Virus genome (UHGV): UHGV-0997613
DNA: 13,529 nucleotides
Origin: a virus
Reading direction: 5' to 3' (one strand)
The notes below the pieces were generated by a model. That model had not been told where the DNA came from and searched no databases. It saw only the letters and a list, made by a program, of their open reading frames with translations. This document shows, in pieces, positions 2,766 to 13,529 of the stretch (position 1 is the first letter of the stretch; each line of letters starts with the position of its first letter). Position numbers and translations under genes: made by a program.

Positions 2766-2974
2766 CACTTCAGGAGTGGAACGCTCGCCAGCGACGCCCA
2801 AGAAGCCTTGAAACAGTTCGTCGATGGGTGCGCGAATGCAGGATATTCCCTCCTCCGGTTAAGGATGGAAGAGAGTATCTGTTCCACGAATCAGCGGTAA
2901 AGGTTGACTTAAATCGACCAGTAACAGGTGGCCTTTTGAAGAGGATCAGAAATGGGAAGAAGGCGAAGTCATGA
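2756..2974 (+). CDS. xis: Excisionase Xis (lambda/HK022 type)
   Basis: 72-aa protein MYLTLQEWNARQRRPRSLETVRRWVRECRIFPPPVKDGREYLFHESAVKVDLNRPVTGGLLKRIRNGKKAKS, matching my recollection of lambda Xis. It overlaps the int start by 23 nt, as in lambda. Confidence 0.9.
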   Translation: MYLTLQEWNARQRRPRSLETVRRWVRECRIFPPPVKDGREYLFHESAVKVDLNRPVTGGLLKRIRNGKKAKS

Positions 2975-4025
2975 GCGCCGGGATTTACCCCCTAACCTTT
3001 ATATAAGAAACAATGGATATTACTGCTACAGGGACCCAAGGACGGGTAAAGAGTTTGGATTAGGCCGAGACAGGAGGATAGCAATCACTGAAGCAATACA
3101 GGCCAATATTGAGTTACTCTCAAACAGCGGACGCAAATCACTGATAGACAGAATTAAAGGCGGTGACGCAATCACTCTTCATGTGTGGCTTGACCGATAT
3201 GAAAGAATCCTCACCGAAAGGGGGATCAGGCCGAAAACTCTACTCGACTACGCCAGCAAAATCAGGGCAATCCGAAGAAAATTGCCGGACAAACCGCTCA
3301 CTGACATATCAACGAAAGATGTGGCAGCAATGCTAAACACCTACGTAGCGGAAGGTAAAGCAGCTTCCGCAAAATTAATCAGGTCAACCCTTGTTGACGT
3401 TTTTCGTGAAGCAATAGCCGAGGGGCATGTGGCAACGAATCCGGTAACAGCAACCCGTACAGCAAAGTCAGAAGTAAGGCGCTCAAGGCTGACAGCTAAT
3501 GAGTATGTCGAGATTTACCATGCAGCCGAACCTCTCCCTATCTGGCTAAGGCTGGCGATGGATTTGGCCGTCGTTACAGGGCAGAGAGTCGGCGATTTGT
3601 GCAGAATGAAATGGTCAGACATAAACGACAACCATCTTCACATTGAACAGAGTAAAACAGGGGCTAAACTCGCCATTCCGCTAACGCTAACGATTGACGC
3701 GCTCAATATCTCATTGGCTGATACACTACAGAAATGCAGGGAGGCCAGCAGCAGTGAAACTATAATCGCATCAAAGCATCACGATCCGCTTTCCCCGAAA
3801 ACAGTATCAAAGTATTTTACAAAGGCGAGAAATGCATCTGGACTCTCATTTGATGGAAACCCGCCAACATTCCATGAACTGCGTAGCCTGTCAGCGAGGC
3901 TATACCGGAACCAGATTGGCGATAAGTTTGCTCAACGTCTTCTCGGGCATAAATCAGATTCAATGGCGGCGCGGTATAGGGACAGCCGTGGACGGGAATG
4001 GGACAAAATTGAAATCGACAAATGA
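2952..4025 (+). CDS. int: Tyrosine integrase, lambda family with HK022-type core specificity
   Basis: 357 aa, collinear with lambda Int (MGRRRSHERRDLPPNLYIRNNGYYCYRDPRTGKEFGLGRDRRIAITEAIQANIEL..., ends REWDKIEIDK). The catalytic region includes HELRSLSARLY and LLGHKSD. Residues at the lambda/HK022 specificity positions read P-K...K and R (PLSPKTVSKYF; ARLYRNQ), which is HK022-like from memory. Confidence 0.95.
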   Translation: MGRRRSHERRDLPPNLYIRNNGYYCYRDPRTGKEFGLGRDRRIAITEAIQANIELLSNSGRKSLIDRIKGGDAITLHVWLDRYERILTERGIRPKTLLDYASKIRAIRRKLPDKPLTDISTKDVAAMLNTYVAEGKAASAKLIRSTLVDVFREAIAEGHVATNPVTATRTAKSEVRRSRLTANEYVEIYHAAEPLPIWLRLAMDLAVVTGQRVGDLCRMKWSDINDNHLHIEQSKTGAKLAIPLTLTIDALNISLADTLQKCREASSSETIIASKHHDPLSPKTVSKYFTKARNASGLSFDGNPPTFHELRSLSARLYRNQIGDKFAQRLLGHKSDSMAARYRDSRGREWDKIEIDK

Positions 4026-4026
4026 T

Positions 4027-4255
4027 TTTATTTTGACTAATAATGACCTGCTTACATTAATTCATTGATAACAAAAGATATTTTAAATATACAACTTATT
4101 CACCTAAAGGATGACAAAATCACATAAATAATTTAAAAATCATAGCATTAGATTACTTAATGATTAAATAATAGACTGCAAAACGCGACAAAACACAACA
4201 TATCCAGTCACTATGAATCAACCACTTAGATAGTATTAGTGACCTGTAACAGAGC
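4027..4255. other. attP: Phage attachment site attP (intact P'-core-P): lambda-like arm sites, HK022-like core
   Basis: Directly after the int stop, TTTTATTTTGACTAATAATGACCTG matches the lambda P' arm sites and ATTGATAAC is an IHF-like site. The core region ACAACTTATTCACCTAAAGG (about 4092-4113) contains the reverse complement of AGGTGAA. The P arm at 4190-4252 (AAAACACAACATATCCAGTCACTATGAATCAACCACTTAGATAGTATTAGTGACCTGTAACAG) is near-identical to the reverse complement of the lambda P arm as I remember it. Confidence 0.75.
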
Positions 4256-4297
4256 ATTAGCGCAAGGTGATTTTTTGTCTTCTTGCGCTAATTTTTT
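4256..4297 (+). terminator. sib/tI-like hairpin distal to attP (candidate int retroregulation site and terminator)
   Basis: Perfect 11-bp inverted repeat ATTAGCGCAAG (4256-4266) and CTTGCGCTAAT (4282-4292), followed by TTTTT (4293-4297), on the int-sense strand just beyond the P arm. Confidence 0.5.
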
Positions 4298-4457
4298 GTC
4301 ATCAAAACCTGTCGCACTCCAGAGACGCACAAAGCCTTGCAATCCAGTGCAAAGATTTGTGTGTTTAAATTTTGTCTAAGCATTCTAGTGAAAACATAGT
4401 AAAATCAGTAACGGCTGGAAATCATTCAATACTCGCACTATCGAAAGTTAACCAGCC

Positions 4458-4500
4458 AGCCGCAGTATCCTATCATGACAAGTTACTGCGGCTTTTTATA
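4458..4500 (+). terminator. Intrinsic terminator-like hairpin in the attP-tailspike spacer
   Basis: 10-bp stem AGCCGCAGTA (4458-4467) with TACTGCGGCT (4484-4493), then TTTTATATTT. The T-run is on the + strand. It lies 120 nt below the tailspike stop, so it may also act on the convergent late transcript. Confidence 0.45.
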
Positions 4501-4616
4501 TTTAACGGCTCAACAGCCAGATCAGCGGGCACACCACCAACGGCATAGAAAAATCCATCAGGCTTGCCATATCCCACGCACGTGCTGACATCCTCCATAC
4601 CATGCAGAACGGGGTT

Positions 4617-6767
4617 TTACGGCGCACTGGATAAAATAGACTTCGTCTTCGTAACAATAACATCTACAAAATCACCTGCAGATATAGCTGATGGTACTGT
4701 ATCTGCAAGAGTAATCTTTCCTGAAGAGATGCTTTGCACATCCAATAATTTATTTTCAATCCCATCCGTATATACCAATTTGATATCACTGAATGGAGGG
4801 TAATAAGTAATGGCCCCTTGGTATACATATATTTCACTGCCTGAAATTGATTTCACTACATACCTTCCCCTTACAAGATTAATTTTGAGTTCAGATAAAT
4901 CTGTTTTATAACAGGTAATTCCTGAACCAATGTTAGCAATACTAATATCAGTATCACTATGATAAGTAATTGCTTTACCTTGCTTTAAAGTAAAAGTATT
5001 TTTACTTTTCCTTGGTAAGGATGTGCTATTTTTGTAATATCTACCAGTTAAGCATAGCCATGAAAATGCAGTATTCACTACATTACCACCAGAATACACA
5101 GCTAAACGAATTGCACTAACTGGAACTCCTTCATTATTAATCCTGATCTTAATGGAAGAAATATTAGTAGCAGTTCCATATCTATGGTTAGCAGAATCCC
5201 ATTGCATCGAAGAAGTTATGGCTTCTGTTTGTGAGGTTATGACATTCCCGTCTCCATCTAATGCATACAGGTAAATGCGAAACGATGCCGTATCTGCTGA
5301 GAATGTAAACATATCACCATTTCTTACTGGTATATCTCCCGATTCCCATAAAAGCCCAAAATCCCTCATAAAAGCAAACTTAGAAGAAACCAGGTGACGG
5401 ATATTATATAAACCATCTACATCTGTTTGATATGCTAATACACCAACTTCTCCATTGTTAGCACTGGATATAAATGGGGTGTTAGCATTTAAAGAAAACA
5501 ATGTTACTTCATCGGATATATTTTCCTGAATATGAAATACTGCATTCCCCTTGCCATTATCAGTTACCTCGACATAAGTGTAAGGTGATGGATTGTATGG
5601 CTCATTTGTATACGCAGGAGATGAAAGCCATGTAGCTTCAATTGAGTTATTCCACGTATATTCACCAAAGTTAATTATCAACTGTTGGTTAGTTGGGGAT
5701 GATGGATATCGTTCAAAACGAAACCCGTAGAAGTAATTGTTATCACCTCTTTGAATATCAATTTTACCTGCCCCCTCCATAGTTCCACCATAAAACTTAT
5801 TGTGGTTATGATGATATGGATTATCAGCGAAAATGATATTATTCGTACGATTCAGATAAAAATAGTTTTCATTTATCCATCCTTTCTCAACTCCAAGAAA
5901 ATGAATTGTATCGACCTTTTTCAGGTTAAAGGTTGAGTATGCTATTGAATAATCCGTCGATGCCACCGAAGCATTATAATTTGCATATAACTGTAAGTAG
6001 TCGCAACGCTCAATGTTTATATGCTGCCCTTTTGCCCCGATAATACGAATATCCGGTGTCGTTTCAGATGAAATACCAGAATTTCTGATAATCGTTCCGA
6101 AGTTTTGTCTTGGGTTGTTAGGGTTTGATGCATTCCCGCCAAGCAATACCCCTATTCCTGAGTGGGATATGGTAAAAACAGCATTGGTCATTTCGAGGCT
6201 GACATTACGAAGATTTAATGTCTCCGTAATAATAAAATTACCTTCCGCTCGTAATGTTCTGGATGATTCTCGTGCATATTCTGCAGCCAGGATCAATGCA
6301 GATGTATCATCTGTTATACCATCTCCTTTTGCCCCCCACCCTCTTACATCACAATCGTCCCTCCACCGAGATATCTGCAATTCAGGGTATTTTTTAGCTC
6401 CATCCTGGTCTTCTAATTGCTGCCGTAGTTGATCAGGGTCATACTTCAGCACATTAGGAAAATAGAACTGCTGCACACCATACGCATCGTATACAGCCAT
6501 CGAATGGCCTTGCACAGTTACGAATTTGGCAATCTGTCCATTATATACAGGGTAACCAGCAGCGTTAATGATGATTGGTTGCGATACAGGAACGTGAGAG
6601 CCGTCTTCGTTCTCCACATAAACCTGCACTTGATTCTGTGGGAGCGTGGGATCGGAATCTATCTTACCAATGAATATCTTGCCATTGCTTGCTGCCTGGA
6701 ATTTTCTGGCTAACGTAAATAGTTGACTTGGCATTGAAATTATAACATTTGGCACAATATTTGACAT
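4617..6767 (-). CDS. Tailspike protein: P22-type head-binding N-terminal domain fused to a right-handed beta-helix receptor-binding domain (pectate-lyase-like)
   Basis: 716 aa. The first ~115 residues (SMPSQLFT...[72 protein letters not shown]...NVLKYDPDQ) match the P22 gp9 head-binding domain pattern. The remainder begins [16 protein letters not shown], typical of pectate-lyase-3-like beta-helix domains, and is markedly AT-rich. Confidence 0.9.
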
Positions 6768-6793
6768 AGTGAATCTCTATTTAAGGAATGAAT

Positions 6794-7282
6794 ATGATTA
6801 CTCATAAAGAATTAACCTCTTCACTCAACTACAACCCAGAAACAGGCGTCTTCACTTGGAAGATAGCTTCTGGTAGCTCCAGTATCGGAAAGGTTGCTGG
6901 ATTTAAGACGAACTCACAGGCCGACTACTTATCAATACGGATTAATGGAAAATCGTATCTTTGCCACCGACTTGCTTGGTTTTATATGAAAGGATGCTGG
7001 CCTAAAGGGTTAATTGACCATATTAACGGGGTTAAAAATGACAATAGAATTTCAAACCTAAGAGAAGTAACCAGAGGTCAGAATAAAACCAACAGCGTTT
7101 CATCATCCAATACAGGTATAAAAGGAGTTCACCTTCTTAAAGGGAAAAACACATATAAAGTTATGTTCAAACTAAAAGGTAAGTCTATTTGCCTTGGGTA
7201 TACCGATGATATTGAGCTGGCCGAATTAATGTCTATTGCATTCAGGGAAAAATATCATGGCGAGTTTGCTTGTTTTAGATAA
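6794..7282 (+). CDS. HNH homing endonuclease with a C-terminal AP2-type DNA-binding domain
   Basis: ORF 6788..7282; ATG at 6794 is the likely start, with AAGGAA at 6783-6788. HNH_3-type motif CHRLAWFYMKGCWPKGLIDHINGVKNDNRISNLREVTRGQN and AP2-like GIKGVHLLKGKNTYKVMFKLKGKSICLGYTDDIELAELMSIAFREKYHGEFA. AT-rich, and divergent from the tailspike with only about 26 bp between the start codons. Confidence 0.85.
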   Translation: MITHKELTSSLNYNPETGVFTWKIASGSSSIGKVAGFKTNSQADYLSIRINGKSYLCHRLAWFYMKGCWPKGLIDHINGVKNDNRISNLREVTRGQNKTNSVSSSNTGIKGVHLLKGKNTYKVMFKLKGKSICLGYTDDIELAELMSIAFREKYHGEFACFR

Positions 7283-8851: not shown

Positions 8852-9100
8852 ATGGCTAGAGATGATCCGCACTTTAACTTCCGTATGCCTTTGGAAGTAA
8901 GAGAAAAATTGAAATTAAGAGCCGAGGCTAACGGAAGGTCAATGAACTCTGAGTTATTACAAATCGTTCAGGATGCTCTCTCCAAACCATCACCTGTAAG
9001 CGGGTATCGTGATGAAGAAGAGAGACTGGCCTCATTAATCTCGGAACGAGTAAAAGAAGTTGCGGCTGAAATTCTAAGGAAAGAAAAAACCCGCGATTAA
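8852..9100 (+). CDS. mnt: Mnt repressor (ribbon-helix-helix, maintenance of lysogeny)
   Basis: MARDDPHFNFRMPLEVREKLKLRAEANGRSMNSELLQIVQDALSKPSPVSGY... matches P22 Mnt as remembered. GGAG lies 7 nt upstream of the ATG. It is divergent from arc-ant, as in P22. Confidence 0.9.
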   Translation: MARDDPHFNFRMPLEVREKLKLRAEANGRSMNSELLQIVQDALSKPSPVSGYRDEEERLASLISERVKEVAAEILRKEKTRD

Positions 9101-9107
9101 GCGGGTT
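9088..9107. terminator. Bidirectional terminator shared by convergent mnt and the toxin operon
   Basis: AACCCGC-GATTAA-GCGGGTT stem flanked by an A6 tract on one side. This gives TTTTTTCTTT on the minus strand and TTT on the + strand. The mnt stop codon lies in the loop and the toxin gene stop abuts the stem. Confidence 0.6.
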
Positions 9108-9556
9108 TAGTCAAACATAGTGTTTCTAAAGTCTCTCGCATACCCTGCTAACACTCTCATTCTATTATGATTGTTAGCAGACATGTGAGCTACAGGGTGA
9201 AAAAGAGCAATCAATGAATACCTGTTCTCATCAAAAAGATTTTGTGCATAAACGAGAGCGGTATTGGATGTTTTATGCCACTGCAACTTTTGCGGTGTGC
9301 TGATATCTGTGCCATTTTTTATTGGCTCAAATTTATTTTCACCAATTGCTAAATGAAGGTGCATAAGACCTGCATCTTCAATATCAGGAGGCCGATGATA
9401 AGAGGTGTCTCTGCCAAAATAGCTGGGCAACGTTCCCGTAGACTTGTAGATGATAAAATCATCTACAAGTGTTTGTTTTAAATCAGGAAACTCAACAAAA
9501 ACCGGGGAGAAAAAATAGTCAAAACTATCCTGATTATATTCCACGGTTACTTGCAT
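9107..9556 (-). CDS. YafO-family toxin homologue (putative ribosome-dependent mRNA interferase)
   Basis: 149 aa. Segments FIIYKSTGTLPSYFGRD, MHLHLAIGENKFEP and LVYAQNLFDENRYSLIALFHPVAHMSANNHNRMRVLAGYARDFR align with E. coli YafO (FISYKRDGVLPDIFGRD; HIHLANENNPFP; LVYCQGAFDEQAWLLIAILKPEPHKLARDNNQMHKIGKMAEAFR) as I remember it. GAGGT lies 5 nt upstream of the ATG and overlaps the upstream gene's TGA. Confidence 0.65.
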   Translation of the reverse strand: MQVTVEYNQDSFDYFFSPVFVEFPDLKQTLVDDFIIYKSTGTLPSYFGRDTSYHRPPDIEDAGLMHLHLAIGENKFEPIKNGTDISTPQKLQWHKTSNTALVYAQNLFDENRYSLIALFHPVAHMSANNHNRMRVLAGYARDFRNTMFD

Positions 9557-9564
9557 GTTTTACC

Positions 9565-10131
9565 TCAGTGGAAGTTACCAGAGTGAAACACACGAGTCCC
9601 GTGCTCAGCAAGCGCACGCAAACCAGCCATATCTACGGAACTATCAAAAACAACCGGAACACATGAGCGTTGTTTAATAAGACTATTCAGGTTAGTTACG
9701 GCAGATCTAGCATCAGCAACAACGATATAGATATCTCTTGCGATCTCTTTAAAATCAGCAGAAGCTTCTTTGAATACCGATTTCATTGCCCCTTCAAGTC
9801 CTCTCAATTGATGCTCTATCAATCGAGACTTTTCTGGTTCAATGATAGACAACACATTGTCTACATTCTCATCGGTAGCGTTTGCAAGAACACGATAAGC
9901 GTATTTCAGCATTCGAGACAATTCTTTAATCGAAGACACCGCCTCATGAAGCTCATCATTAGCCCGTTCACTGCTGAATGAGGATTGATGGTAAGCGTGC
10001 TGAACGTTATCAGTAACAACCACCTCACAACTGAACGCAGAAGCTTGCTGTAATAGCAAACCTATTGCGACTCCAGCTTTGGCAGCGTTCAAGCTAAACA
10101 TTTCATCAATCCCATTAGTCTCATTGCTCAT
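9565..10131 (-). CDS. Hypothetical 188-aa protein, first gene of the toxin operon (candidate non-canonical antitoxin or partner)
   Basis: ATG at 10131 (MSNETNGIDEMF...) has AAGGAGG 5 nt upstream; the ORF-track start at 10161 lacks a Shine-Dalgarno. Predicted mostly helical. No similarity to YafN, RelB or Phd-type antitoxins that I can see. Confidence 0.6.
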   Translation of the reverse strand: MSNETNGIDEMFSLNAAKAGVAIGLLLQQASAFSCEVVVTDNVQHAYHQSSFSSERANDELHEAVSSIKELSRMLKYAYRVLANATDENVDNVLSIIEPEKSRLIEHQLRGLEGAMKSVFKEASADFKEIARDIYIVVADARSAVTNLNSLIKQRSCVPVVFDSSVDMAGLRALAEHGTRVFHSGNFH

Positions 10132-10198
10132 ACAAACCTCCTTCTTATCGGAGATTATCAATAGCTATGTATCCATTGAATACACGCTATGCGCAGTA

Positions 10199-10227
10199 AT
10201 TCTACGTCACGTGATATCATTATGCAA
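10199..10227 (-). promoter_or_regulatory. Candidate promoter of the toxin operon with a palindrome in the spacer
   Basis: On the minus strand: TTGCAT (10227-10222), 17-bp spacer, TAGAAT (10204-10199). The spacer contains the 8-bp palindrome TCACGTGA (10207-10214) overlapping GATATC. Confidence 0.35.
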
Positions 10228-10310
10228 CCACCGTTCTATCACCGACTAACTTTACTCCCACTCCTATACATCATCTGGTATCCTGCTCAAAACTAAGGAG
10301 TGGCTACTCA

Positions 10311-10949
10311 ATGAAAAAAATAGATATATATAGCGATACATCAGCCTATGTCATAGGCTCATTGGGTTTTTTAATTTTTTTTGTTTGGCAGTACCAGTCA
10401 CTATCTCCAGGATGGCGATTTTTGGGGATGTCTTTGATATCACTTGGTGCAGGAATAGCAACGCAGGTGTTGATGTATCTCTTTAATGGATGGCTCTCAA
10501 AAAGAGTTGAGAAAAAAAGAGCTACTTCAATATGTAGAAGCCTAGCTATTCCAGAAGACTCTACAGATCAGGATGATATTGCAAAATGTTGGCGGTATAT
10601 GATTGCAAGATACTCAAATGAGTTACTGGCAAACAGACTGTCCGACTTAATCGGGATCGTAGTTACCTCTGTTGGAACAATCATCAGTATAGGGATATCA
10701 ATTTGGTATGTCGGGATGATTGTCTATTTTGTTTGGAATAGAGACTTCAATGAACCTTCCCTTCTTTTTATACCTTTATTTTTCAGGGTATTAGCATTCA
10801 TATGTGAGTTATTGCTCTCTTTTTTCTGCAATGTTTTGTTCAACAGATACCCAGGTGAAGCAAGAAAGTTTAATAAAAACTATGATGAGTTAAGGAGAAC
10901 AGATCCTTTTCTATCAAGCAAAGAGTTCCGCGATTCCATTCGCAATTAA
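10311..10949 (+). CDS. AT-rich integral membrane protein, about 4 transmembrane helices (candidate superinfection-exclusion or abortive-infection protein)
   Basis: 212 aa with four hydrophobic segments (AYVIGSLGFLIFFVW; FLGMSLISLGAGIATQVLMYLF; LIGIVVTSVGTIISIGISIWYVGMIVYFVW; LLFIPLFFRVLAFICELLLSFFCNVLF). Strongly AT-rich relative to neighbours. AAGGAG lies upstream. It is divergent from the toxin operon and convergent with the ejection-protein gene. Confidence 0.65.
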   Translation: MKKIDIYSDTSAYVIGSLGFLIFFVWQYQSLSPGWRFLGMSLISLGAGIATQVLMYLFNGWLSKRVEKKRATSICRSLAIPEDSTDQDDIAKCWRYMIARYSNELLANRLSDLIGIVVTSVGTIISIGISIWYVGMIVYFVWNRDFNEPSLLFIPLFFRVLAFICELLLSFFCNVLFNRYPGEARKFNKNYDELRRTDPFLSSKEFRDSIRN

Positions 10950-10970
10950 CAACATCCATGACATCAACCC

Positions 10971-12884
10971 TTAGCGATCAGTTGCATCATTGGCAAGTAT
11001 TGGTCTGATGGCATTTGCGGCGTTATTCAGCGCTCTTTCATAAGCTGGCGTTCCAGCTTTAGTGTTTGCCAGACGTAAGAGCGCATTCCTAGCCATAGGG
11101 CTTTCATAAACCCTCGACATAAGGCCAATCCCTGTTTCCCCAGCCAATAGCGCGCCTCCGGTTTTTAGGTTACCAATAACCCTTACCAAAGGCGCGAGTG
11201 TCATGCCAGTCTTCGTCACAACATTAGCCTCAGATGCTCTTTTGGTAGCATCGAGAATAGATAACATCCCCTCTATCTCTTTTCCGTTCTTCCCACCAAA
11301 TACAGTTTTAAACACCTGACCATTTGCTTGTTTTTGCAGCTTGCCAAGCTCGGTCATCATTTTCTGAGGGCTGTCACCTACCTTGTCAGCTATTTTGCTG
11401 ATATATGCCGCCCTTAGCATGTCTTTACCTTTTTGATCGAGTTTCCCGTACAATCGAGCTATATCTGACCCATATTGTCCATACACAATGGTATTTACAG
11501 CCTCGGGAGTTAAATCTCCTTTGTTTAGAACGTTTTTAAGGCGCGTTTGAGTTACATGTGTTGCCATTTTTGCATAATCAGCTTTTCCCGCTCTCCATGC
11601 TGAAGCATCTTTTGGGCTAAGTCCTTTCGCTATAGATTTACTAAGGCTATTGGTTAGCGAGTTATAGACCCTGTCGACCATTGTTTGCGACATTGATGGC
11701 AGAACTGTACGATCGCCTTTTACGTCAATGCGGAACTGAGTTCTCAGCTTATCAAGTAACTCAAAGGCATCATCTCCATTTGTTATCTCCTGAATGGCAT
11801 TCTTATAATCATTAAGCGCAGAAATGGTCTGGGTGTCAGAAACACCTTTAAGTTTCCCAAGTTCGTTTACTGCTCCGTCGATAGCTCTTATGGCGCCACT
11901 TGTATCAACTGGCTTTCCAACCATTCTTCCTGACAGGCTGTTTAGTTTTGACTTGGCTAACGATTTTTCCCTTGCAACGCCTGACTTTAGACTATCAACG
12001 ACTACAGATGGATCGTAGTCGCCGTATTTTTCGGTGAAGCGATTAACAAGCTTGGTTCTGGCATCCTGCTGTGCGGCTCTCATTGGTCCAGTACCAGCTA
12101 TGACTCCTTCTGAGTAACCCTGCAGTTGATTGCCAAGTTTTGTTTTTGGAGGAACTACATCCGATGTCATAACTGGTACATCTGCCGCAGCGGCACGCTT
12201 GAGCAATTGCTGATCTGCTGGTGATATTTCGCCACGAACAGCAGTAATTCCACGCCCTATTCCCTTTGCTGCTGCGGAAAGAACCCCCTGAGCGGCAAGG
12301 TTAACTCCGGCATTTTTAGCTGCATTTTGTGCGAAATCGCCTTTCTGATTTGCAGCATCAGCAAGAGAACCTGCAATCATGTTTCCTGCGGAACCGATAT
12401 CTCCAGCGAGCTTTGCTGTCGCTCCAGCAGCTTTTGCCGCTGTGCCAATTGGCAGGAGATACCCACCAATTGTTTCACCGGCTTGCGCGTAAGGGTCTGT
12501 CGGTCGCTCGACAGGGCGATAAACATCATCCAAAACCTTGGGGCCACCAAGCCCCTGGCTGATTGCATTAATCAGACTTGCGCCACCCTGCAATACGTCA
12601 AATGGTATGTTTACCAGACCACGACCAGCCTGTTCTGCAATTTGCCCTGCACTTTGACCACCAGTGAGCCAATCGCCAGCTTGTTGCATCAATGATGGTT
12701 CTTCTTTCTGCTGCTGAGGCGGAGGGTATGCTGCATAAAACTGATCTCTTGCTTCAGCCCATTTGTCACCAGCCTTAGGGGCAACAACCTCATCAAAATA
12801 TTGCGCTTGAGCCTGTGCTTTCTGTTCTTCAGTTAACGCCTGATACTGTGGAGAAGCGATAACATCTTTCCATGCTTTAGCCAT
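10971..12884 (-). CDS. Internal virion / DNA-ejection protein (P22 gp16 position)
   Basis: 637 aa, Ala/Gly/Gln-rich, last gene of the structural block before the accessory island, as gp16 is in P22. The start overlaps the upstream stop (TAATG). Assigned by position and composition, not by a remembered sequence. Confidence 0.55.
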   Translation of the reverse strand: MAKAWKDVIASPQYQALTEEQKAQAQAQYFDEVVAPKAGDKWAEARDQFYAAYPPPQQQKEEPSLMQQAGDWLTGGQSAGQIAEQAGRGLVNIPFDVLQGGASLINAISQGLGGPKVLDDVYRPVERPTDPYAQAGETIGGYLLPIGTAAKAAGATAKLAGDIGSAGNMIAGSLADAANQKGDFAQNAAKNAGVNLAAQGVLSAAAKGIGRGITAVRGEISPADQQLLKRAAAADVPVMTSDVVPPKTKLGNQLQGYSEGVIAGTGPMRAAQQDARTKLVNRFTEKYGDYDPSVVVDSLKSGVAREKSLAKSKLNSLSGRMVGKPVDTSGAIRAIDGAVNELGKLKGVSDTQTISALNDYKNAIQEITNGDDAFELLDKLRTQFRIDVKGDRTVLPSMSQTMVDRVYNSLTNSLSKSIAKGLSPKDASAWRAGKADYAKMATHVTQTRLKNVLNKGDLTPEAVNTIVYGQYGSDIARLYGKLDQKGKDMLRAAYISKIADKVGDSPQKMMTELGKLQKQANGQVFKTVFGGKNGKEIEGMLSILDATKRASEANVVTKTGMTLAPLVRVIGNLKTGGALLAGETGIGLMSRVYESPMARNALLRLANTKAGTPAYERALNNAANAIRPILANDATDR

Positions 12885-13459
12885 TAATCACCCCATAAAG
12901 ACGAGAAACCGGACTTATTGCTGTCGCTTCCTGATTTTCGCTCACTAACATATGTGTCATAACCTGATGAACTGTATCCCATTGATTCAGCCTCCCTTGC
13001 TGCAACCTTTTGAAATACAGAATATTGAGATCGTATTTCAGATAACTGTTTTCTGACGACCTCTTCAGGCTGTGTTATATCGAGTTTCGCGATCAGGTTT
13101 TCCAGTTTTTGGCCTTCAGCATTGGAGAGGCTACCCATACCTCGCATAGTCTGCACGTTCTGGACAAACGCACCCGACTTTAATTCTTCTATCGCATTAC
13201 GGTTTGCAAGCCCTTCAGCACTTGTGAAGCCATCTATATTTCTTCCTTCGAAGCGACCGATACCTTCAAGCTCCTTCTTACCAAGCAAAGAATCTATTTT
13301 CTCTATCCCTCGCTCACCAGTAATCAACGCATTGTTGTAATTATTGTTGCCATCAAGCCATCTCTTAGCCTGAGACATTCTGGCTGACGTTGCAGCTTTA
13401 CCGGTTAGAGGATCAATTCCCGTCGCTGCTATCTGTGAGTTAAGAGACAAAACATCCAT
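12884..13459 (-). CDS. Putative ejection protein, 191 aa (gp7/gp20 position)
   Basis: Translationally coupled to the downstream gene. An in-frame stop at 13484-13486 bounds the ORF, so it is not a truncated larger gene in this frame. Confidence 0.45.
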   Translation of the reverse strand: MDVLSLNSQIAATGIDPLTGKAATSARMSQAKRWLDGNNNYNNALITGERGIEKIDSLLGKKELEGIGRFEGRNIDGFTSAEGLANRNAIEELKSGAFVQNVQTMRGMGSLSNAEGQKLENLIAKLDITQPEEVVRKQLSEIRSQYSVFQKVAAREAESMGYSSSGYDTYVSERKSGSDSNKSGFSSLWGD

Positions 13460-13529
13460 ATCCTGAAGTTGTCCCGCTCTTTCTCAGGGACCGGAAGCCT
13501 ACAGTAAATTCATTACTGACAACAAGGAC
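13440..13529 (-). CDS. 3' end of an upstream structural gene (partial; continues beyond the window)
   Basis: A different frame is open from the window edge to TAA at 13442-13440 (...VLVVSNEFTVGFRSLRKSGTTSGYGCFVS*), overlapping the next gene's start by about 20 nt. Confidence 0.3.
   Translation of the reverse strand, partial: VLVVSNEFTVGFRSLRKSGTTSGYGCFVS

Follow-up and report, generated by a model that had tools for sequence, protein, structure and literature searches.

A type B sieA superinfection-exclusion gene in a new mosaic neighbourhood of a P22-like Escherichia coli phage

An open reading frame lying between a gene 16 homologue and a divergent toxin operon, in the 13,529-nucleotide stretch of viral DNA analysed here (the window), raises the question of whether a small membrane protein encoded where phage P22 carries sieA is itself an exclusion protein, and whether it stands alone or belongs to a larger defence island with its toxin-encoding neighbours. 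The reading frame is exactly as originally predicted, with an ATG at 10311 and a TAA ending at 10949 (plus strand; 212 codons, 639 bp), and it encodes the superinfection-exclusion protein SieA of P22-like prophages, in its type B form.

The protein matches the profile phrog_7745, 'superinfection exclusion SieA-like' (E = 1.6e-20, aa 45-191), and among about 50,000 phage records searched with tblastn the only matches are to P22-type sieA (27% identity, E = 3e-11); at a threshold of E 1e-5, all 38 matches are type A at 27% identity, and no type B sieA is found among these deposited phage genomes. Compared directly, it is 27-28% identical to P22 SieA (BLASTP E = 5.6e-23, elsewhere given as ~1e-23), and an identical protein bears the precomputed Pfam label PF26849 SIEA. 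Of the 212 residues, 211 (99.5%) are shared with HS1 SieA (WP_000717773.1), a type B protein of demonstrated activity, and the sole change is L62 here for I62 in HS1. The gene for the latter is at NC_009800 325462-326100, between gene 16 and the tailspike gene of a P22-like prophage that lies next to thrW in strain HS; we equated EcHS_A0321 with ECHS_RS01600 because it is the only sieA-like gene between those two genes in that prophage. The original prediction of an exclusion-type inner-membrane protein is therefore borne out by the profile, the P22 match, the family label and the HS1 identity, and the homology search returns a characterised exclusion protein. Its remark that the sequence is not a recognisable one does not hold, as this is a described, curated and tested type (HS1 type B SieA, PF26849); the unfamiliarity is explained by the distance of type B from P22 SieA (27% identity).

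Copies of the gene are also widespread. When the 5,426 complete E. coli genomes were searched by blastn, its DNA was found at 99.3-100% identity in 21, E. coli HS included. WP_021575669.1 and the products of genes in eight further E. coli chromosomes match the protein at 100% identity, and nearly 2,000 blocks of an assembly collection contain it in exactly this form. Each of eight inspected loci encoding the identical protein adjoins a PF26808 Phage_P22_gp16 gene, and all eight are labelled PF26849 SIEA. Homologues are found in Salmonella, Yersinia and Serratia, the same genera that are listed for the type B group (Table S2 of PMC10883804). Annotation has not kept pace: of the complete E. coli genomes inspected in RefSeq (NZ_CP185286.1, NC_009800.1, NZ_CP148579.1 and others), none gives type B sieA a label other than 'hypothetical protein', and our own Pfam, NCBIfam and PADLOC scans of the reading frame returned nothing significant. 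Neither PADLOC nor NCBIfam has any model for the SieA family, and the Pfam copy that was scanned lacks PF26849 and is evidently older than that model. A megablast search of 9000-11100 against the phage records gave matches in the flanks alone.

The window covers the right arm, immI and int of a P22-like E. coli phage, and the features around sieA are as follows.

10311-10949, plus strand: sieA type B, 212 aa, a predicted inner-membrane superinfection-exclusion protein (phrog_7745; HS1 identity).
10971-12884, minus strand: gene 16 homologue, 637 aa, of the ejection/DNA-transfer class targeted by SieA (phrog_770, E = 3.8e-245).
12884-13459, minus strand: C-terminal part of a gene 20-type ejection protein, 191 codons listed (phrog_2534, positions 250-420 of 435).
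9565-10131, minus strand: 188-aa partner upstream of yafO, a presumed antitoxin (phrog_8416, E = 2.6e-96).
9107-9556, minus strand: YafO-family toxin, 149 aa (PF13957 YafO_toxin, E = 3.4e-22).
8852-9100, plus strand: mnt-like Arc-family repressor, the immI marker (PF03869 Arc, E = 6.9e-28; relative position of P22 mnt).
4617-6767, minus strand: tailspike.

Beyond mnt (plus strand) come arc and ant (minus), an HNH endonuclease gene (plus), the tailspike gene (minus), an AT-rich gap, and then int, xis and early genes (plus). In P22 the order is 16 (minus), sieA (plus), orf59a, mnt (plus), arc and ant (minus) and 9 (minus), and the order and strands of the window match it. Placement of sieA between gene 16 and the tailspike gene (gene 9), opposite to the late operon, is equally the layout of P22 and of 10 E. 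coli prophages, in agreement with the original prediction that this is the position P22 uses for sieA. The adjacent gp16 is 52% identical to P22 gp16 and 95% identical to that of E. coli 19SZHZ803Rt. It keeps P22 G532, a glycine conserved among the gp16 proteins of five P22-like phages compared (PMC10883804), as G560, and has K574 at the position of P22 P546.

Several other features of the window merit description in their own right. Gene 20 is interrupted near 13488, its collinearity with the intact, 99.5%-identical gene 20 of E. coli TW14425 extending no further than about 13488-13493, after which in-frame stops follow; the last ~55 bases (13475-13529) are an inverted match to a conserved part of gene 20 (nucleotides ~396-450 of P22 gene 20). 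This points either to an inversion that truncated gene 20, as in a defective prophage, or to a chimeric source contig. At the other end, a perfect 26-bp direct repeat, CTGGCATTCGCATCAAAGGAGAGTGA, at 28-53 and 522-547 brackets a Mom-like reading frame (50-547), and the reading frame before it, truncated at the window start, terminates in the same ...GIRIKGE* codons; the repeat suggests that a cassette was inserted or duplicated where a gene end and ribosome-binding site recur. The HNH endonuclease gene (6788-7282, plus strand; 164 aa, AT-rich; phrog_99, E = 1.3e-60) lies between the tailspike gene and ant, and a 45%-identical HNH gene of the same size occupies another site, after gene 10, in other prophages with type B sieA (L012 and L013); these genes resemble free-standing homing endonucleases that move between genomes of the P22-like group. 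The region at 2952-4616 encodes a lambda-type integrase with xis upstream and is 98% identical to the int region of phage H19J. Some 590 bp separate the ends of the integrase and tailspike genes, and because neither a tRNA nor host DNA lies between them, the window represents a circular or virion (attP) form of the genome, not an integrated prophage.

The architecture of the protein provides the basis for its type assignment. Kyte-Doolittle hydrophobicity peaks at about aa 11-25, 37-55, 113-131 and 151-169, and these four segments are enclosed by helices at 6-25, 33-78, 105-143 and 149-177 in an AlphaFold2 model, which was built on an alignment of 11 sequences and is of moderate confidence (pLDDT 74.8, pTM 0.56). 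The coincidence of peaks and long helices supports the four hydrophobic helices of the original prediction, as does the makeup of the C-terminal tail its description as charged (9 K/R and 6 D/E among the 36 residues of aa 177-212). Lysines and arginines cluster in the loop at aa 60-113 and in the tail, that is, following helices 2 and 4, so that by the positive-inside rule both termini are predicted to be cytoplasmic, together with the 54-residue loop (aa 60-113), and only ~5 and ~11 residues are predicted to reach the periplasm. This topology agrees with the TMHMM description of SieA in PMC10883804. Relative to P22 SieA, there is an N-terminal extension of 31 aa that holds an extra hydrophobic helix (6-25) and a C-terminal extension of 16 aa. 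Type B is defined by an N-terminal extension of ~30 aa with an additional transmembrane segment, and is ~25% identical to type A (PMC10883804); the protein is of type B because of its 31-aa extension with the extra helix, its 99.5% identity to HS1 SieA and its 27-28% identity to P22 SieA. The tail begins with the family motif.

10839-10877, plus strand: SieA motif FxRYPxEAxxFNK, here FNRYPGEARKFNK, aa 177-189, read directly from the translation and predicted to be on the cytoplasmic side.

This cytoplasmic motif is common to all three SieA types (PMC10883804); it is present in every homologue that we aligned, and its residues F, R, Y, P, E, A, F, N and K are invariant across the aligned types A and B. 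A Foldseek search of the model against the PDB gave no match with E < 2 or TM > 0.31, and therefore yields no structural lead to the SieA mechanism.

Base composition is less distinctive than was first thought. The sieA reading frame has a GC content of 36.6%, compared with 47.0% in gene 16, 42.5% in the adjacent divergent 188/198-aa gene and 43.8% over the window as a whole. The lower GC content than gene 16 thus stands, but the difference from the flanks is neither unique nor sharp, because yafO (38.0%), the tailspike gene (38.0%) and the HNH gene (37.4%) are similarly AT-rich, and ~6% of all 639-bp windows of the stretch are at or below the value for sieA. The composition is moron-like and forms no singular dip. 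Homopolymer runs near the start comprise an A7 at 10314-10320, a T6 at 10367-10372 and a T8 at 10375-10382; the two T runs are where they had been reported, and the A run is one base downstream of the reported 10313-10319. With three runs of at least six bases inside the first 72 nucleotides of the gene, phase variation of sieA through slipped-strand mispairing is conceivable in principle. However, the A7 codes for Lys-Lys, and the T runs are merely the Phe, Leu and Ile codons of the Phe-rich first helix. Moreover, the runs show no insertions or deletions in 10 other copies of the gene, their lengths changing only in one copy, where a base substitution turns the T6 into a T5. All 10 copies retain the 639-bp reading frame, and eight of them translate exactly to the window protein. 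As the runs are without length variation in these ten copies, we regard the probability of phase variation as negligible.

We next consider the toxin pair, which had been proposed to form a compact accessory island with sieA. The YafO module is present in ~290 of the 5,426 complete E. coli genomes at 80-99% identity, inside P22-like prophages and between mnt and gene 16, and RefSeq names E. coli copies of 99% identity 'type II toxin-antitoxin system YafO family toxin'. The toxin matches PF13957 (E = 3.4e-22) but at only 79 bits, against a cut-off of 153 for the NCBIfam equivalog; being so far below that value, it probably belongs to a distinct subfamily, and its partner is large and unusual. 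This 188-aa partner has no Pfam or NCBIfam match, no assignment to an antitoxin family, and only phrog_8416 as a profile match. RefSeq gives it a 567-bp coding sequence, and the listing of reading frames has a longer version that starts at a TTG at 10161; the ATG at 10131 is immediately preceded by GAAGGAGG.

The genome comparisons separate the two modules. Among the 5,426 complete E. coli genomes, ~290 carry the YafO module and 21 carry type B sieA, yet they are side by side in none; no place covering at least 80% of 9000-11100 is found in those genomes, and the exact junction of YafO and type B sieA gave nothing in IMG/VR viral genomes or GTDB species-representative genomes. Type B sieA also has many different upstream neighbours across loci. 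A linked sieA/toxin island is rejected on account of the zero co-occurrence in those complete genomes and these varied neighbours, and the YafO pair is an independent mosaic module and no part of sieA. The two modules are physically adjacent in the window and divergently oriented, and both are AT-rich and moron-like, which would fit a two-layer defence island, in which an entry block and abortive infection are co-regulated from the 179-bp intergenic region. We consider this extremely unlikely, given that the combination is absent from the complete genomes and the junction searches are empty, that HS1 sieA alone suffices for exclusion (PMC10883804), and that PADLOC has no convincing model match for either toxin-antitoxin protein.

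The boundary between these independent modules is defined by a short conserved block immediately upstream of sieA.

10270-10300, plus strand: conserved block ATCATCTGGTATCCTGCTCAAAACTAAGGAG, 31 bp, with a Shine-Dalgarno sequence AAGGAG at 10295-10300, 10 nt before the ATG (from locus comparison).

Homology to YafO-carrying prophages runs to 10300, and homology to the loci with type B sieA starts at 10270. The block is common to the window, nine other loci with type B sieA, P22 sieA (where it is slightly diverged) and a locus in a YafO-type E. coli prophage in which a 62-aa, two-helix reading frame (phrog_21338, unannotated) fills the sieA slot, with the block upstream; the corresponding regions of two other loci are at ~4215-4433 (L001) and 3932-3961 (L005). 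Upstream of the block there are at least four unrelated sequence versions. It resembles a mosaic boundary that is annotated as 'boundary sequence' in phage CUS-3, and is probably both a mosaic boundary and a shared signal for sieA expression. In the 179-bp intergenic region (10132-10310), a scan for consensus sites detected no sigma-70-like promoter, and a possible extended -10 element, TGGTATCCT, lies at 10277-10285 inside the block.

The DNA upstream of -41 is derived from the YafO module, unlike the 106 bp of native upstream DNA in the HS1 construct. Expression of SieA in the context of the window is thus only presumed, as no consensus promoter was found and the upstream DNA differs beyond -41, and it is the one real source of doubt about function here. 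A possible concern is that recombination at the block exchanged the native upstream region for the control region of the YafO operon, leaving an intact sieA silent or misregulated, a passenger with no exclusion phenotype; the positions at which the two homologies end and begin (10300 and 10270), together with the promoter scan, are in keeping with this. Nonetheless, the block and its Shine-Dalgarno sequence are retained, and in four or more unrelated upstream contexts, P22 included, it stands before sieA, as it does before a different reading frame in a YafO-type prophage. Because it is kept across these contexts, we argue that the block or its vicinity holds the needed signals, or that these are readily provided. 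The reading frame is, in addition, intact and identical to widespread copies, and we regard a silent gene as very unlikely. Somewhat less improbable, while still doubtful, is that the block is a portable boundary of an expression and recombination cassette for swapping small membrane proteins, with the 62-aa protein as a further exclusion factor; a separate proposal, that type B sieA and YafO are co-regulated, we hold at the same low level.

The reading that we favour is of a functional exclusion gene. With a high degree of confidence, the gene is a type B sieA from a P22-like phage or prophage of E. coli, and its product would be a four-helix inner-membrane blocker of DNA injection by P22-like phages that leaves unrelated tailed phages unaffected. 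The function is assigned because of the identity with the tested HS1 protein. In that work, EcHS_A0321, the type B gene of HS1, was cloned into Salmonella together with the 106 bp upstream of it (Leavitt et al. 2024, PMC10883804), where it fully excluded P22, L, MG40, MG178 and LP7; P22 hybrids carrying the ejection proteins of L, Sf6 or CUS-3 were also excluded, and a hybrid with those of HK620 leaked at ~10% (PMC10883804). The pattern is indistinguishable from that of P22 SieA, and SieA exclusion is specific to P22-like phages, other phage types being unaffected (PMC10883804). P22 SieA is located exclusively in the inner membrane and abolishes the K+ efflux that accompanies DNA entry, and mutations that escape it map to the C-terminal regions of gp16 and gp20; these three observations pertain to P22 SieA only, not to type B (PMC10883804).

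On this reading, a low level of SieA made from the prophage would sit in the inner membrane and prevent superinfecting P22-like phages from delivering DNA; the likeliest means is interference with the gp20/gp16 conduit that carries DNA across the envelope, whose assembly or function at that membrane would be disturbed. Direct contact of SieA with gp16 and gp20 may be involved, and is a model even for P22; because only ~5 and ~11 residues of SieA are predicted to be periplasmic, such contact would presumably occur within or at the membrane. Unrelated tailed phages would not be affected. Given the established features of the window protein (its identity with a tested protein, its motif, its position and its helices), we infer by analogy with HS1 that the window allele would exclude P22-like phages in its own upstream context.

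The gene itself is already known, and the sole local peculiarity is its new mosaic neighbourhood. The practical value of the assignment is to correct an annotation, from 'hypothetical protein' to sieA (type B), and it predicts resistance to P22-like phages in hosts carrying the element, a point that bears on transduction, phage typing and therapy with podoviruses of this group. The means by which a single small membrane protein can block conduits made of very divergent gp16 and gp20 proteins is a question for the whole family, and is not advanced by this copy.

Comparison with known SieA proteins places the window gene close to that of HS1 (CP000802), the products having equal length, start, motif and four predicted helices in addition to the 211 shared residues, and the genes having gene 16 adjacent, equal orientation and 41 conserved bp before the ATG. 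The two differ in the upstream neighbour, which is the YafO toxin pair here and a gene with an HTH domain in HS1, the DNA beyond -41 being unrelated; identity between the neighbouring gp16 proteins is only 53%, and the substitution at residue 62 (L here, I in HS1) is conservative. P22 SieA (type A; DAA00996.1) belongs to the same phrog_7745/PF26849 family and shares the FxRYPxEAxxFNK motif, its three transmembrane helices aligning with the C-terminal three of the window protein; its gene has the same genome slot and orientation, with the block GGTATCCTGCnCAAAACTAAGGAG upstream. It differs in being 162-164 aa long, in lacking the first ~31 aa with the extra helix and the last 16 aa, and in its 27-28% identity. 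HK97 gp15, Sie2009 of Lactococcus phage Tuc2009 and Ltp of Streptococcus phage TP-J34 have no detected sequence relationship to the window SieA and are analogues, not family members. They are likewise prophage-encoded membrane proteins that block DNA entry by related phages, and escape from them likewise maps to DNA-conduit proteins, but they differ from SieA in targeting long-tailed phages, through tape-measure or tail-tube proteins (PMC10883804).
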